NCBI GenBank assembly: GCA_015063305.1
Contig: SVUJ01000002.1
Span: 67,388 to 131,387, forward strand
Source of the DNA: Oscillospiraceae bacterium
GTDB lineage: Bacteria > Bacillota > Clostridia > Oscillospirales > CAG-272
Direction of reading: 5' to 3'
Length of the DNA stretch: 64,000 bases
A program made the translations under genes and the position numbers. Below the pieces are notes generated by a model. That model was not told where the DNA came from. It did no database searches and saw only the letters and a program-made list of their open reading frames with translations. Shown here piece by piece: positions 2,435 to 62,747 of this stretch (position 1 is the stretch's first letter; each line of letters starts with the position of its first letter).

Positions 2435-3166
2435 ATGGAGATAAAAGATATGTTTCCTTTGGCTATAGAGGGACTTGAGAGAGCTATAGGATATACCTTT
2501 AATAACAAAAGCATACTCGTTGAGGCGCTTACACACTCGTCGTATGCAAACGAGCTCAGGGCAAGGAAGCAGAGCGTGAAGTGCAACGAGAGACTTGAAT
2601 TTTTGGGAGATTCGGTGCTCTCTATCATAGTCAGCGAATACTTGTATTCGCTTCACGGCGAGCTTGCCGAGGGCGAGCTCACAAAGCTCAGAGCGGCGGT
2701 GGTACAATCCAGCGCTCTTGCGTCTTATGCCAAGAAAATAGGTCTTGGAGATTATCTTTACCTTGGCAACGGCGAGGAAAAGAACTGCGGCAGAGAGCGT
2801 CAGTCGATACTTGAGAATGCCTTTGAGGCGCTGCTTGCGGCTGTGTATCTCGACGCGGGCGAGAAGGGCAAGGAAACTGTAAGCGTATTTTTGCTTCCGC
2901 TCATCAAGGCAGAGCTTGAGCGCCTTGGCGCGCGCGGAGCGCACAGCGACCATAAGACCGAGCTTCAGCAGCTCATACAGCAGGCTGAGGGGGATTTTTT
3001 GGAATACGTGACGGTCAGGGAGTATGGGCCCGACCACAACAAGACTTTCGAGGTCGAGGCAAGGCTCAATTCAAATGTGATCGGAAAAGGAAAAGGAAGG
3101 ACCAAGCGCGAGGCGGAGCAGAATGCGGCAAAAGAGGCGCTTGAGCTCTTTGGAGAAATAGAGTAA
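2435..3166 (+). CDS. rnc: Ribonuclease III
   Basis: RNase III signature ERLEFLGDSVL, with a C-terminal dsRBD (KTELQQ...GKGKGRTKREAEQNAAKEAL). The ATG at 2435 lies just after the plsX stop; the longer track ORF (2369) overlaps plsX. Confidence 0.95.
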   Translation: MEIKDMFPLAIEGLERAIGYTFNNKSILVEALTHSSYANELRARKQSVKCNERLEFLGDSVLSIIVSEYLYSLHGELAEGELTKLRAAVVQSSALASYAKKIGLGDYLYLGNGEEKNCGRERQSILENAFEALLAAVYLDAGEKGKETVSVFLLPLIKAELERLGARGAHSDHKTELQQLIQQAEGDFLEYVTVREYGPDHNKTFEVEARLNSNVIGKGKGRTKREAEQNAAKEALELFGEIE

Positions 3167-22466: not shown

Positions 22467-23000
22467 ATGAATCTGAATGAAAGAAGCGAAAGGACAAAAA
22501 AGCTTGCGATATGCGCTATGCTCAGCGCGCTCGGAGTAGTGGTGCTTTACCTTGGCTCACTTGTTGAGGTCTTGGATATCTCAATGGCGGTCATAGCATC
22601 TCTGTTCGTTATATTCGCCGTGATAGAATACGGCGGGGCAGCGCCTTGGGCGATATTCTTCGTAACGGGAATACTATCGACCGTGCTTTTGCCAAACAAG
22701 TTCCCTGCGGTGATGTACCTGCTGTTTTTGGGATTTTATCCTATTATAAAGGAAAAAATAGAGCATCTCAGAAGCAGAGCGTGGCAATGGGTGATAAAGG
22801 AAGCGGTCTTCAACGTATGCCTTGTATTGCTTATGATGATGTCAAAATATTTCCTCTATTACGGAGTGGAGGGGCTTGAGATATTTGAGGCGGTATTCTT
22901 CCTTCTTGCGAACGGAACATTTGTCATATACGACATCGCGCTCACAAGACTCATTTCGCTCTATGTTTTTAGATTAAGAAAAAAGTTCAGAATAAAATAA
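22467..23000 (+). CDS. Hypothetical integral membrane protein (about 5 TM)
   Basis: 177 aa and hydrophobic. RBS gaggga. Sits 16 nt after the J-protein stop. No family recognised. Confidence 0.6.
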   Translation: MNLNERSERTKKLAICAMLSALGVVVLYLGSLVEVLDISMAVIASLFVIFAVIEYGGAAPWAIFFVTGILSTVLLPNKFPAVMYLLFLGFYPIIKEKIEHLRSRAWQWVIKEAVFNVCLVLLMMMSKYFLYYGVEGLEIFEAVFFLLANGTFVIYDIALTRLISLYVFRLRKKFRIK

Positions 23001-23050
23001 AACAAATGGTACTTGATGTTGCTTTCTTTTCATAAGGATGTTTACAGATT

Positions 23051-23086
23051 TCGGCAGAGATATTGTTTTCTCTGCCGATTTGTGTT
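23051..23086 (+). terminator. Intrinsic terminator closing the DUF5685-like / J-protein / membrane cluster
   Basis: tcggcagaga / tctctgccga 10-bp perfect stem, 8-nt loop, then tttgtgtt. Confidence 0.7.
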
Positions 23087-23107
23087 ATAATGTATTTGGT
23101 GATGTGA

Positions 23108-23623
23108 ATGGATAAACAAAAGAAATTATCTCAAAGAAAATCGACACGATTAAAGAATTTTGATTACGGTACATCGGGTGCATATTTCATAACGATATGC
23201 ACGGAAAACAGACGAAGAATACTTTCTCGAATTGTAGGGGTCGACGTCCTCGGCGACCCGAATAACGTGGAATTACTGCCGTATGGAATTGTAGCGGATA
23301 GATACATAAATAAATTCAATGAATTTTACGGTAATATAACCATAGACCAATATGTTGTTATGCCAAATCATATTCATATTATGTTGCTTTTGCGTGACAA
23401 CGGGTCGCCGAGGACGTCGACCCCTACAAGACAGACTTCTGCGATATCGCATTTTGTATCTACATTCAAAAGATTCTGCAATAAAGAATATGGAGAAAAT
23501 ATTTGGCAACGGGGCTTTTATGATCACGTTATTCGAAATAAACAAGATTACGAAGAACATATAAAATACATTCACGAAAATCCCATTCGTTGGCACTACG
23601 ATGAATTGTATTCAGAAGGATAG
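23108..23623 (+). CDS. IS200/IS605-type Y1 HUH transposase, REP-associated tyrosine transposase (RAYT)-like
   Basis: 171 aa. GAYFITICT first strand, HUH motif MPNHIHIML, WQRGFYDHVIR, and catalytic-Tyr helix HIKYIHENPIRW. No IS ends or tnpB nearby. Confidence 0.85.
   Translation: MDKQKKLSQRKSTRLKNFDYGTSGAYFITICTENRRRILSRIVGVDVLGDPNNVELLPYGIVADRYINKFNEFYGNITIDQYVVMPNHIHIMLLLRDNGSPRTSTPTRQTSAISHFVSTFKRFCNKEYGENIWQRGFYDHVIRNKQDYEEHIKYIHENPIRWHYDELYSEG
23232..23260 (+). repeat. Arm 1 of a perfect 29-bp intragenic inverted repeat; GTAG-headed REP-like hairpin
   Basis: ttGTAGGGGTCGACGTCCTCGGCGACCCG is the exact reverse complement of 23401-23429. It self-folds as GGGTCG.CG/CG.CGACCC with a TCCT loop and encodes VGVDVLGDP. 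Confidence 0.9.
23401..23429 (-). repeat. Arm 2 of the intragenic inverted repeat (GTAG head on the minus strand)
   Basis: CGGGTCGCCGAGGACGTCGACCCCTACaa matches arm 1 at 29/29 as its reverse complement. Encodes GSPRTSTPT in the transposase frame. Confidence 0.9.
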
Positions 23624-23626
23624 AGG

Positions 23627-23642
23627 GTATGGGCTTCGCCCG
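23627..23642 (+). repeat. Degenerate REP-like hairpin immediately 3' of the transposase stop
   Basis: GTATGGGCTTCGCCCG is GTAT + GGGC/GCCC stem (TTC loop) + G. Same layout and orientation as arm 1. Confidence 0.4.
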
Positions 23643-23695
23643 ACGCATTTGTAATACAAAAGCGAAATTAGTGATAAATCGGAAAGGATCAAACA

Positions 23696-24367
23696 GTGAA
23701 AGTATCGTTGATTATTTCTAACAGTTTGTATAATTGTGAGGTCATAATTAAAGATCTATTTGGAAGTAAAAATTATACTGTCAATTTGCAAGACAAACAA
23801 TCTGATTTGCTTGAAATAGATATTGAAAGTAGTAGCTTTGAGTTGACTCTTGTTCCTAAAATGGTTGACTACCAATTCGCTTCCTCGAATATGGAAATTC
23901 AAAATTGGAAAGATAAGCTTGCACAAAAGGTTGGAAATGCGTTGTGTTCTATGCTTGATAAAATGCTTCTTCGTGTGGGATGTACATATATCATATCAGG
24001 AATAAAAGAAAATGATGTTATATACGTATCCGGTCAAGAAAATGTTTTTGGAACGTTTGATAAATTCGATTTGTTTGAGTTTATACCTATGGCATATATG
24101 TTTTTTGAAGTATCTTGCCGCGGTGTTCTTTTCGAATGTTCTAATGCGTTCGCGATAAATAGAAAAGAGGTTATTTCTTCTGCGAAGAAGCTTGTATGCT
24201 TAGACTTTGGATTACACTTGATTTTTACTTATCCCATTCAAGTGGGGCGAATCAAAAAGCTAACATCTCGTAGAAAAGTAAACAAAACACTTATAAAATT
24301 CACCAAATTGAATGAAAAAGAAAGGCAAAAAGTGCTTGACAAAAAAGAAAAATTTATGTCTCTATAA
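23696..24367 (+). CDS. Hypothetical protein, no recognisable domain; very low GC
   Basis: 223-aa ORF with a GTG start preceded by aaagga. Lys-rich C-terminus. Hand count of 23701-23760 gives 15/60 G+C, against 33/60 at 24541-24600. Confidence 0.55.
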   Translation: MKVSLIISNSLYNCEVIIKDLFGSKNYTVNLQDKQSDLLEIDIESSSFELTLVPKMVDYQFASSNMEIQNWKDKLAQKVGNALCSMLDKMLLRVGCTYIISGIKENDVIYVSGQENVFGTFDKFDLFEFIPMAYMFFEVSCRGVLFECSNAFAINRKEVISSAKKLVCLDFGLHLIFTYPIQVGRIKKLTSRRKVNKTLIKFTKLNEKERQKVLDKKEKFMSL

Positions 24368-24369
24368 AA

Positions 24370-24407
24370 ACACCCCGACAGACCTAAAACCTGTCGGGGT
24401 GTTTTTG
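24370..24407. terminator. Bidirectional intrinsic terminator between the hypothetical ORF and spoIIR
   Basis: acaccccgacag / ctgtcggggtgt 12-bp perfect stem, flanked by aaaa and ttttt. Confidence 0.8.
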
Positions 24408-24474
24408 CAAAGCAACTATTTGCAAGTGCCGTAATTTTGTAAACGTGCTATATTTTCATATCATCAATCTGAAC

Positions 24475-25083
24475 TTATTTCCCCAAAAGCCCTTCGATGG
24501 TTTCAAGCACCTTGAAGCGCACCTCGTAGGTGGGGGAGTCGGTTTCGGTTATCACCTTGTACTGTCCCTCGGTGAGCCCTACCGATATGAAGGCGTCCTC
24601 GGCAGCGCTCTTTTCTGTAGCGGCGGAAAGACAGAGCGGGGGGAAGAGAACACACCACCAATTCTGTCCCTCAGCCTCGCCTATAAGCACACGAAGAGAG
24701 GTATAGCTTCCTGACGGGAAACAGAAGGATTCGTAATTTCTTGTGGGGTATTCTTCCTCGCTAAGCTCTATTCTGACGGTGTAATCATATCCCGCCTCTG
24801 ATATGGTGTTTTTTGCGGTCTGTGTGAGCGCGGGGATAGCGGAATTTATCTTTTCTATGGCTTTCTCTTTTGTGCTACACCCTTCAAATATCTCGGCTGA
24901 GCTGGCAAGAATCGCGTCGCGTACCCTAAGCTTCAGTGCTTGGTCTTCCTCGCTGTCGGAATTTGCAAGAACGTGAAGTCGCAGGACGCTGTCGTATATC
25001 TCGTTCTCTCCGTGGACGGGCATAAGTCCGATAAAAATAAGGATAACTGCAAGACAAACAGTGATAGTGAGTAGATTTTTCAT
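24475..25083 (-). CDS. spoIIR: Stage II sporulation protein R
   Basis: Signal/TM N-terminus, then LRLHVLANSDSEEDQALKLRVRDAIL and NWWCVLFPPLCL, the hallmark SpoIIR motifs. Confidence 0.92.
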   Translation of the reverse strand: MKNLLTITVCLAVILIFIGLMPVHGENEIYDSVLRLHVLANSDSEEDQALKLRVRDAILASSAEIFEGCSTKEKAIEKINSAIPALTQTAKNTISEAGYDYTVRIELSEEEYPTRNYESFCFPSGSYTSLRVLIGEAEGQNWWCVLFPPLCLSAATEKSAAEDAFISVGLTEGQYKVITETDSPTYEVRFKVLETIEGLLGK

Positions 25084-62248: not shown

Positions 62249-62265
62249 CTCGGAGGAATGTGAAA

Positions 62266-62568
62266 ATGGGGTCTGAAAAATACTTTATTGGCAAGAATAC
62301 CGTTGCCGCATCGCTCATAAAGGCGTTCATAGCGCTTCTGTTCGTTTTCTCCGTGGTGTTTTTTATATGGAGCGTGATGCAATATAACAAGACTATGGAA
62401 GACAAGGCTGAAAAGGAAGCCTATATAGAAGAGCTCAAGGAGGAGATAGAGGAGCTTGAGTACCTTGTGGAAATGCCTCTTGACGATGACTACAAGATAA
62501 GGATAGCCCGAGAGAAGCTTGGAATGTGTTTCCCTGATGAGATAATCTTTTATACCGACCTTGATTGA
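62266..62568 (+). CDS. divIC: Septum formation initiator (DivIC/FtsB family)
   Basis: Single TM, coiled coil (EELKEEIEELE), and the C-terminal IRIAREKLGM motif. ATG 62266 lies 9 nt after GGAGG. Confidence 0.85.
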   Translation: MGSEKYFIGKNTVAASLIKAFIALLFVFSVVFFIWSVMQYNKTMEDKAEKEAYIEELKEEIEELEYLVEMPLDDDYKIRIAREKLGMCFPDEIIFYTDLD

Positions 62569-62614: not shown

Positions 62615-62639
62615 GTAGGGGAGGGGCTTGCTCCTCCCG
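62615..62639 (+). repeat. REP-like hairpin 1 (GTAG head); probably also the divIC terminator
   Basis: GTAGGGGAGGGGCTTGCTCCTCCCG is GTAG + an 8-bp stem (gggagggg/ctcctccc) with a CTTG loop + G, followed by ttttt. Confidence 0.65.
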
Positions 62640-62657
62640 TTTTTATTGCTGTATTTG

Positions 62658-62682
62658 CGGGAGCACCAAGACACTCCCCTAC
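62658..62682 (-). repeat. REP-like hairpin 2, inverted partner of 62615-62639 (REPIN-like doublet)
   Basis: The reverse complement GTAGGGGAGTGTCTTGGTGCTCCCG matches hairpin 1 at 21/25. The four differences fall on two stem base pairs. The spacer is 18 nt. Confidence 0.6.
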
Positions 62683-62704: not shown

Positions 62705-62747
62705 CAAAAAGGTCGACCCTACGCTTGGCGTAGAGTCGACTTTTTTA
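62705..62747. terminator. Bidirectional terminator between divIC and the HPr-like gene, built from GTAG(G/A)GTCGAC half-sites
   Basis: gtcgaccctacgc / gcgtagagtcgac 13-bp stem (1 mismatch) with a ttg loop, flanked by caaaaa and tttttt. Confidence 0.75.

Follow-up and report, generated by a model that had tools for sequence, protein, structure and literature searches.

Why does a transposase gene hold, within its own reading frame and on either side of its HUH motif, two copies of a hairpin sequence of the kind that its enzyme family recognises? The question is raised by a gene for a 171-amino-acid protein in a 64,000-nucleotide stretch of an Oscillospiraceae genome (GCA_015063305.1, contig SVUJ01000002.1, positions 67,388 to 131,387 of the forward strand), which is referred to here as the window. 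The gene encodes a tyrosine transposase associated with repetitive extragenic palindromes (REPs), known as RAYT or TnpAREP, and contains a perfect inverted repeat. An initial annotation, made from the sequence alone, described the repeat and offered self-recognition, a messenger RNA duplex cut by RNase III, or an invertible segment as its possible consequences. Our analysis indicates that the repeat is probably a head-out doublet formed inside the gene by the host's cognate REP, whose two copies lie in frame in loops of a RAYT of subclass 2.4 type and would keep enzyme and substrate linked.

The inverted repeat is real and does not reflect chance. Its arms (23232-23260 and 23401-23429) are reverse complementary at 29 of 29 positions across a gap of 140 nt. 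A search of the 64-kb window with the 27-nt core, allowing up to three mismatches, found no place besides the two arms, and 100 shuffles gave no match to the core. An assembly artefact can be dismissed, since approximately 70 independent assemblies show this layout. The features that concern the repeat and the gene are as follows.

23108-23623, plus strand: tnpAREP (RAYT) gene for a 171-residue HUH-Y1 enzyme, assigned to the subclass 2.4 type; identified from the open reading frame (ORF), Pfam, NCBIfam, and similarity to 4ER8.
23232-23260, plus strand: arm 1 (TTGTAGGGGTCGACGTCCTCGGCGACCCG), a REP unit on the coding strand made up of TT, the GTAG foot, an imperfect 9-bp stem with a TCCT loop, and a final G.
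23261-23400, plus strand: 140-nt spacer of the putative internal head-out REP doublet, coding for helix 58-73, strand 77-84, and the HUH strand.
23401-23429, minus strand: arm 2, the REP unit of arm 1 repeated on the template strand, with its GTAG foot read on the minus strand.
23504-23536, plus strand: codons of W133 Q134 ... D139 H140 ... R143, counterparts of the residues W94, Q95, E100, H101, and R104 that bind the GTAG guide (hidden Markov model (HMM) alignment to 4er8_A).
23567-23569, plus strand: codon of Y154 (KYIHENP), which aligns with Y115 (DYIYINP) of E. coli TnpAREP.

Direct sequence comparison, translation of the ORF, and folding all agree with what the initial annotation had read from the arms. 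Arm 1 encodes (I)VGVDVLGDP and arm 2 encodes GSPRTSTPT, both in the transposase frame, and the HUH motif NHIH (23366-23377) is flanked by the arms on either side. The arm core is 20/27 G+C, compared to 33% for the gene without its arms and 48% for the window. A single arm folds by itself into GTAG, six base pairs, one purine-purine mismatch, two further base pairs, and the 4-nt loop, with a predicted energy of -9.9 kcal/mol for the GTAG strand and -7.2 kcal/mol for its complement.

In E. coli, TnpAREP binds a REP hairpin with a 5' GTAG on single-stranded DNA, cuts it, and rejoins it (Ton-Hoang et al., 2012, PMC3333891; Messing et al., 2012, PMC3479197; PMC8266576). Residues W94, Q95, E100, H101, and R104 of that enzyme bind the GTAG guide (Quentin et al., 2018, PMC6006769). 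The window protein has a weak match to the Pfam family Y1_Tnp (PF01797; 25.4 bits against a cut-off of 23) and narrowly passes the NCBIfam equivalog NF047646, "REP-associated tyrosine transposase" (80.8 bits against a cut-off of 80). Its best PDB relative by sequence is the E. coli enzyme 4ER8 (E = 8e-9 with a profile of 26 homologues), with which it shares 25% identity. The AlphaFold2 (AF2) model of the protein (predicted local distance difference test score, pLDDT, 70.8) likewise has 4er8_A as its top fold match (E = 1.6e-7, TM 0.55/0.57), followed by the transposases of IS200, IS608, and ISDra2. The HUH motif, residues 87-90, aligns with EHMH of 4ER8; it is invariant in homologue alignment A1 and reads NHIH in 67 of 68 relatives. 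Y154, N158, and P159 are invariant in the same alignment, and the counterparts of the guide-binding residues (W133, Q134, D139 with a change from E to D, H140, and R143) vary little or not at all. Y115 of 4ER8, the partner of Y154, is the catalytic tyrosine of E. coli TnpAREP. Identification of the ORF as a RAYT is therefore borne out by NF047646, by the sequence and fold match to 4ER8, and by the retention of catalytic and GTAG-binding residues.

Both arms fall in loops of the predicted structure. In the AF2 model, arm 1 corresponds to the loop ahead of helix 58-73, flanked by the short strands E40-42 and E54-56, where pLDDT is lower. Arm 2 corresponds to the loop that joins the HUH strand to helix 112-128, with pLDDT below 50 at residues 99-109, and the HMM alignment makes it an insertion of 9-10 amino acids relative to 4ER8. 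The arm 2 site is the beta3/alphaC loop, where REP insertions have been placed by Quentin et al. (PMC6006769).

Comparison with related genes is useful for separating lineage-specific features from conserved ones. The homologue pool comprised 3,740 relatives at E <1e-5, and the comparative set consisted of 80 loci on contigs from one genome per species, all from gut metagenome-assembled genomes (MAGs; Clostridia, Oscillospiraceae, or Acutalibacteraceae) with 36-74% protein identity. Of these loci, 77 have full-length genes, two have pseudogenes with frame shifts, and one has a gene truncated by the end of its contig. A GTAGG...CCTAC pair is present at the same two positions in 73/80 loci, and 71/80 loci, plus the window, have arm-arm complementarity of at least 18/27. 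Arm 1 is in frame 0 at all loci (GTA GGG, Val-Gly), usually 43-44 amino acids N-terminal of NHIH, and in most genes arm 2 ends 18-26 amino acids past NHIH. The sequence of the arms is lineage-specific (for example GTAGGGACAGGCGTCCTCGACTGTCCG, GTAGGGGCGATTCACGAATCGCCCG, GTAGGGCGGGGGCTTGCTCCCGCCG, and GTAGGGGACGATGCCCACATCGTCCCG), and the arm type, or REP type, tracks a protein tree made with the arms masked. At the protein level, the homologue alignment contains co-varying peptide pairs such as VGVDVLGDP/GSPRTSTPT, VGDDVLGVP/GTPRTSSPT, and VGGDVLDAP/GASRTSPPT. The initial annotation had recorded an impression that Firmicutes homologues carry lineage-specific, mutually reverse-complementary peptide pairs; the alignment confirms it, and the paired, co-varying segments are found at nucleotide level in the 71 loci.

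The remaining variation is also informative. At locus L064, the hairpins in the two positions are unrelated to each other. Four relatives (L043, L056, L061, and L079), with at least three REP types among them, have no internal REPs and an intact ORF. Additional in-frame REPs stand beside arm 1 or arm 2 in L005 (8607/8664), L013 (+153 in the gene), L055 (+189 in the gene), L077 (10302/10344), and protein P0033, with spacings of, for example, 57 or 42 nt; in L055, a REP of a foreign family (GTAGGGGCGATTCACGAATCGCCCG) is in the arm-1 loop. The arm loops are hot spots for REP gain. In pseudogene L012 (10001-10500), a 23-nt deletion in arm 1 takes out the hairpin and leaves GTAG in place, and pseudogene L040 (4173-4690) has one extra G in the GGGG run of arm 1.

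Two structures could be conserved in such a gene, a local hairpin in each arm or a long-range duplex between the arms. Both models exceed shuffled and slid controls, and the positions at which they make different predictions decide between them. The arms are identical in 27/71 genes and imperfectly complementary in 44/71. Differences between the two arms of a gene include 46 in the loop, 17 stem changes compensated inside the arm, two swaps at the conserved mismatch, one single change that keeps the pair, and nine single changes that break it, nearly all of them in arm 1. None is in GTAG, which is invariant across 48 distinct arm pairs. With the conserved purine-purine mismatch set aside, the local stems pair in 764 of 768 cells; between the arms, 29 of 864 stem cells and 28 of 192 loop cells are unpaired. 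Within a clade of 24 genes, third-codon identity is 84% in the arms and 45% in the rest of the gene, while amino-acid identity is 70% and 64%, respectively. For comparison, the HUH block has 98% protein identity and only 51% identity at third positions. Because the arm differences spare the local stems and third-position identity is high, the constraint acts on nucleotides, with a single GTAG plus hairpin as its unit. Judged from these comparisons, the conserved unit is the individual GTAG-plus-hairpin, i.e., the REP, and the 29-bp duplex is a by-product.

The same REP is also dispersed outside RAYT genes. Across the 1.2 Mb of fetched loci, there are 275 hairpins headed by GTAG, compared to 25-56 for nine control tetranucleotides, and 121 of the 275 are beyond RAYT-like regions. 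Copies identical to the internal arms flank the genes in L001 (-97, +264), L009, L016, L019, L026, L048, and L077. An exact 26-mer of the window's REP is present in 71 copies on 69 metagenome stretches, in 58 distinct flank contexts; four copies are within RAYT genes (L099, L144, and L146) and 67 are elsewhere. Lone copies are present among them, with the same loop and mismatch. The flanks of these copies have T at -1 in 58/71 and T at -2 in 44/71, which explains why the repeat in the window reaches 29 nt. With dispersed copies found in both the fetched loci and the metagenome contigs, and with conserved GTAG and stems, the initial reading of each arm as a GTAG-headed REP-type hairpin holds.

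Doublets of the REP occur in non-coding DNA as well. Contig L134 has a non-coding head-out doublet of the window's REP with a 94-nt spacer, and other doublets measure 137-148 nt from foot to foot. A tblastn match of L134 to the RAYT (472-804, E = 2e-8) is spurious, because it comes from translated arms that read VGVDVLGDP and GSPRTSTPT. Origin of the extragenic doublets as excised HUH segments was considered and discarded; their spacers are AT-rich, filled with stop codons, and unrelated to the gene interior.

Several other REP arrangements were observed. The window contains a head-out REP doublet of another family at 62615-62682, consisting of GTAGGGGAGGGGCTTGCTCCTCCCG and a diverged inverted partner that ends in CTAC at 62682. 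It lies downstream of a DivIC-like gene (62260-62568), and beyond it comes a GC-rich terminator-like hairpin with a T-run (62711-62746). Another RAYT clade (L034) has this REP as its internal arms, a finding that suggests a second RAYT paralogue elsewhere in the genome. The window's REP is found together with a second REP type (GGGCTGGCGTCCCCGACAGCCC), in opposite orientation, in L090, L094, L123, L126, L127, and L137. These pairs resemble bacterial interspersed mosaic elements (BIMEs) and are reminiscent, by analogy, of the Y/Z composition of E. coli BIMEs. Nine contigs (L086, L092, L108, L109, L124, L136, L139, L143, and L148) have the window's exact REP in one conserved context, TTGCAAACATT-[REP]-GCAATGCATCGTAGAAATCTCTCC, which looks like another conserved element or gene end bearing a REP. 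In L019, tandem hairpin arrays with a 27-nt period are located on both sides of the RAYT gene (16-70 and 869-1001), and their units have TTTGTAA where the GTAGGG foot would be.

A hallmark of subclass 2.4 (RAYT group 4) is that REPs are inserted in frame into the tnpAREP gene; the subclass is further characterised by NH[IFV]H, WQ, and YIxNNP motifs, the absence of a C-terminal extension, and GTAG REPs in which three G-C pairs form the base of the stem (Quentin, Siguier, Chandler, and Fichant, 2018, BMC Genomics 19:475, PMC6006769). A REP within the ORF of its own transposase thus has a precedent, and a full-text literature search found REPs inside RAYT genes described nowhere besides that study. 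The window gene resembles subclass 2.4 in its NHIH and WQ motifs, lack of a C-terminal extension (12 amino acids follow the NP of the Y motif), stem base of three G-C pairs, in-frame REPs, and beta3/alphaC insertion. It differs in its Y motif, which is YIHENP here and YI[HYC][EQ]NP across relatives, not YIxNNP, the two groups being compared by motifs and REP type. Members of subclass 2.4 come mainly from Cyanobacteria and Bacteroidetes, whereas the genes described here come from gut Clostridia MAGs. The phenomenon is therefore known in kind, and it is the layout in this clade that is particular: in approximately 70 Clostridia relatives there is a fixed pair, with one REP on either side of the HUH strand and always foot-outward, and flanking REPs are usually absent (a same-family REP is within 1.5 kb in only 10/72 genes).

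Other REP systems have part of this arrangement. The E. coli REPtron (Ton-Hoang et al., 2012, PMC3333891; 4ER8, Messing et al., 2012, PMC3479197) has the same HUH-Y1 fold, catalytic Tyr, and GTAG-binding residues, a cognate GTAG hairpin with a conserved stem irregularity, and inverted REP pairs near the gene. However, its REPs are outside the ORF and the loops of its protein are short, whereas arm 2 here is an insertion. A REPIN consists of two inverted REPs that form a long hairpin and has been proposed as a replicating unit (Bertels and Rainey, 2011, PMC3116915). The internal doublet has the same head-out geometry, and non-coding doublets of the window's REP exist (L134), but the internal spacer is 140 nt of essential coding sequence, whereas the spacers of extragenic doublets are AT-rich and non-coding, and the internal doublet gives no sign of moving as a unit. 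REPs in other coding genes, as described by Di Nocera et al. (2013, PMC3733652), are also tolerated in frame in flexible loops. The hosts in that study are mostly replication and repair genes, whereas the host here is the REP's own enzyme, with which the REP co-diverges.

Taken with these comparisons, the arrangement in the window suggests how an internal doublet might work. Each REP unit (TT-GTAG-hairpin-G, 27-29 nt) is carried in one of two surface loops of the protein, and the working unit would be a single-stranded DNA hairpin with a 5' GTAG foot, on the coding strand for arm 1 and on the template strand for arm 2. With one REP copy per strand, a GTAG-hairpin would be presented whichever strand is exposed. 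We infer that the protein recognises the hairpins of both arms; that it binds and cuts them is suggested by its likeness to the E. coli enzyme. The 29-bp complementarity would simply arise from two facing copies of one near-palindrome, and the doublet is probably the internalised counterpart of the flanking REP pair (REPIN) found at other RAYT genes. Such a doublet would physically tie the enzyme to a seed copy of its substrate, and its nucleotide sequence could be preserved by selection or, alternatively, by the copy-and-replace activity of the REP/RAYT system itself. Self-recognition on single-stranded DNA, one of the consequences in the initial annotation, is plausible.

The linkage appears to be useful and not merely tolerated. 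In all four intact relatives without internal REPs, a head-out REP doublet is located beside the gene, at a distance of 54-124 nt. An adjacent doublet is thus present in 4/4 genes without internal REPs and in 2/71 genes with them (Fisher p = 1.2e-5). This pattern may be new, and it speaks for a retained cis-linked doublet over pure tolerance.

Several observations weigh against a retained internal doublet. The pattern of adjacent doublets was spotted after the fact and involves only four genes without internal REPs. The hairpins are dispensable for the protein itself, because those four relatives keep intact ORFs. Extra and foreign-family in-frame REPs in the same loops (L005, L013, L055, and L077) fit opportunistic insertion equally well. 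The 64-kb window has no further copy of the arm REP family. In addition, assignment to subclass 2.4 comes from motifs and REP type, not from a reference tree, and the Y motif is YIHENP.

The strongest alternative is that the arms are tolerated passengers. REPs would insert preferentially near a RAYT gene or existing REPs, only in-frame copies in two permissive loops would persist within the gene, and these would seem conserved through constant overwriting by active copies, all with no benefit to the gene. Quentin et al. (PMC6006769) judged the insertions to be peripheral and probably without effect on activity, and both loops are predicted to be flexible here. The four intact genes without REPs and the additional and foreign REPs in the same loops are consistent with this explanation, as is the fate of L012 and L040: arm-1 lesions inactivated both genes, and the hairpins therefore carry a cost. 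However, position, orientation, and frame are fixed in approximately 70 of 80 genomes at 36-74% protein identity, the arm type co-diverges with the protein, and an adjacent doublet is found where internal REPs are missing, which suggests that the cis-linked doublet itself is retained. We consider pure tolerance possible but somewhat unlikely.

The opposite extreme is that the doublet is obligatory. A RAYT would need one head-out doublet, either adjacent or internal, and the internal doublet would be the gene's cis-linked REPIN moved into the ORF, which would make enzyme and substrate inseparable. Under this proposal, which we put forward tentatively and regard as rather unlikely, the co-divergence of arm and protein and the adjacent doublets in genes without internal REPs both make sense. 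If it is true, the obligatory doublet could be a loading or autoregulatory site on single-stranded DNA, or a protected master copy that reseeds genomic REPs.

Local RNA hairpins are a further alternative. In the messenger RNA, each arm could form a stable stem-loop that makes ribosomes pause or shields the transcript, a role that extragenic REPs have in 3' untranslated regions. The local hairpin is the conserved unit, as this explanation needs, and REPs are known to act as RNA elements elsewhere (PMC3733652; bioRxiv 10.64898/2026.03.23.713779). However, the GTAG foot is on opposite strands in the two arms, so that the transcript contains GUAG-hairpin once and hairpin-CUAC once. The complement hairpin is the weaker of the two (-7.2 versus -9.9 kcal/mol), and in one lineage (L050, L062, and L074) a G-T wobble on the GTAG strand becomes an A-C mismatch in the arm-2 transcript. 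A primary role in RNA is very improbable on these grounds.

The initial annotation had also proposed that the 27-29-bp arm-arm helix, which would close a 140-nt loop in the messenger RNA, is cut by RNase III or blocks ribosomes and so limits transposase synthesis. Part of this proposal stands: the predicted RNA fold of the window gene employs the full arm-arm duplex (-91.1 kcal/mol, z = -9.9), perfect arms are present in 27/71 genes, and rnc at 2435-3166 is a genuine RNase III gene. Conservation of the duplex does not stand. The 44/71 genes with imperfect arms have changes in loops or changes compensated per arm, which spare the local hairpins, and the arms of L064 are unrelated; a long-range duplex as the conserved structure was rejected on this pattern of arm differences. 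A duplex also leaves unexplained the invariance of GTAG and the identical single copies in 58 extragenic contexts, and arm identity needs no pairing, because lone copies hold the same loop and mismatch. We regard this function as highly improbable, and the predicted duplex in the window gene could lower expression as a side effect. An intragenic inverton, in which arm-arm recombination would flip 23261-23400 and the truncated product would be an OFF state, is extremely unlikely: the inverted repeat is a perfect 29 bp and the flipped interior does read ...GDPLSRKSNII-stop as had been stated, but all 80 full-length assembled copies (77 genome loci and three metagenome genes) are in the coding orientation, the neighbouring genes scanned include no recombinase, and perfection of the repeat is not conserved, although rare flipping could escape notice because assemblies show the majority orientation only.

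The sequences around the gene also contain conserved elements, listed here in order of position.

23031-23050, plus strand: box CATAAGGATGTTT / CTCATAAGGATGTTT, an empty REP site; in relatives the cognate REP is between the box and the 5' hairpin.
23051-23078, plus strand: terminator-like hairpin CGGCAGAGA..TCTCTGCCG with a T-rich tail, upstream of the RAYT gene (the 5' hairpin).
23083-23091, plus strand: extended -10 element TGTTATAAT, after the 5' hairpin.
23098-23104, plus strand: ribosome-binding site GGTGATG, after the extended -10 element.
23624-23678, plus strand: 3' untranslated element with hairpin GCATTTGTAATACAAAAGC (23645-23663), a conserved sequence after the stop codon.

The 5' hairpin, extended -10 element, and ribosome-binding site travel with the gene at approximately 15 loci, including non-syntenic ones (for example L001, L003, L009, and L011-L014). 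The box site, empty in the window, is filled by the cognate REP in L001 (9904), L009 (9907), and seven metagenome contigs (L095, L098, L115, L120, L129, L138, and L142). The 3' element (GGGTATGGGCTTTGCCC ... GCCTTTGTAATACAAAGGCGAAACTGGCGATAAA) is kept in eight loci (the window, L002, L009, L011, L012, L014, L017, and L046) and has weak covariation. In an E-value scan of 22500-24500, no Rfam family matched the arms, the 5' hairpin, or the 3' element. Without its arms, the RAYT gene is lower in G+C than its flanks in 80/80 loci (mean 36.8% versus 48.8%, r = 0.75). GC-rich hairpins in such an AT-rich gene would extrude easily; alternatively, the deficit may reflect foreign origin.

The neighbouring genes are ordinary chromosomal genes that encode a DUF5685 protein, a DnaJ-domain protein, a membrane protein, an unknown protein, SpoIIR, and a YceG-like protein. 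Synteny with L011, whose RAYT is 58% identical, covers the three upstream genes, and the neighbour proteins there are only 43-46% identical. The closest RAYT, in L001 (74% identity), is in a different genomic setting. IS200 has a terminator-like hairpin upstream of tnpA. The hairpin upstream of the window gene resembles this insulating hairpin, and members of IS200/IS605 (IS608 and ISDra2) have the same fold and recognise subterminal DNA hairpins on single-stranded DNA. The conserved 5' and 3' non-coding parts and the low gene G+C in all 80 loci hint at mobility, and the whole module was considered as a possible IS200-like insertion sequence (IS). However, the hairpins of these IS elements are outside tnpA and on one strand, and their copies are multiple and near-identical. 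In contrast, the gene here is single in the window and syntenic with a relative at 58% identity, and repeated identical copies were not seen.

REP/REPIN-RAYT systems are among the commonest bacterial repeat systems, and both the role of RAYT in the cell and the retention of REPs by the gene are open questions. The arms described here explain the GC-rich hypervariable peptide pairs VGxxxxxxP / GxxxxxxPT in thousands of gut Clostridia "transposase" entries. They also set a trap for annotation, in that arm peptides give spurious protein matches to non-coding REP doublets such as that in L134. The clade offers a compact natural test case for why RAYTs retain REPs in cis, in which the hairpins are within the ORF, silent sites are constrained, and the internal REPs, when absent, are apparently replaced by an adjacent doublet.

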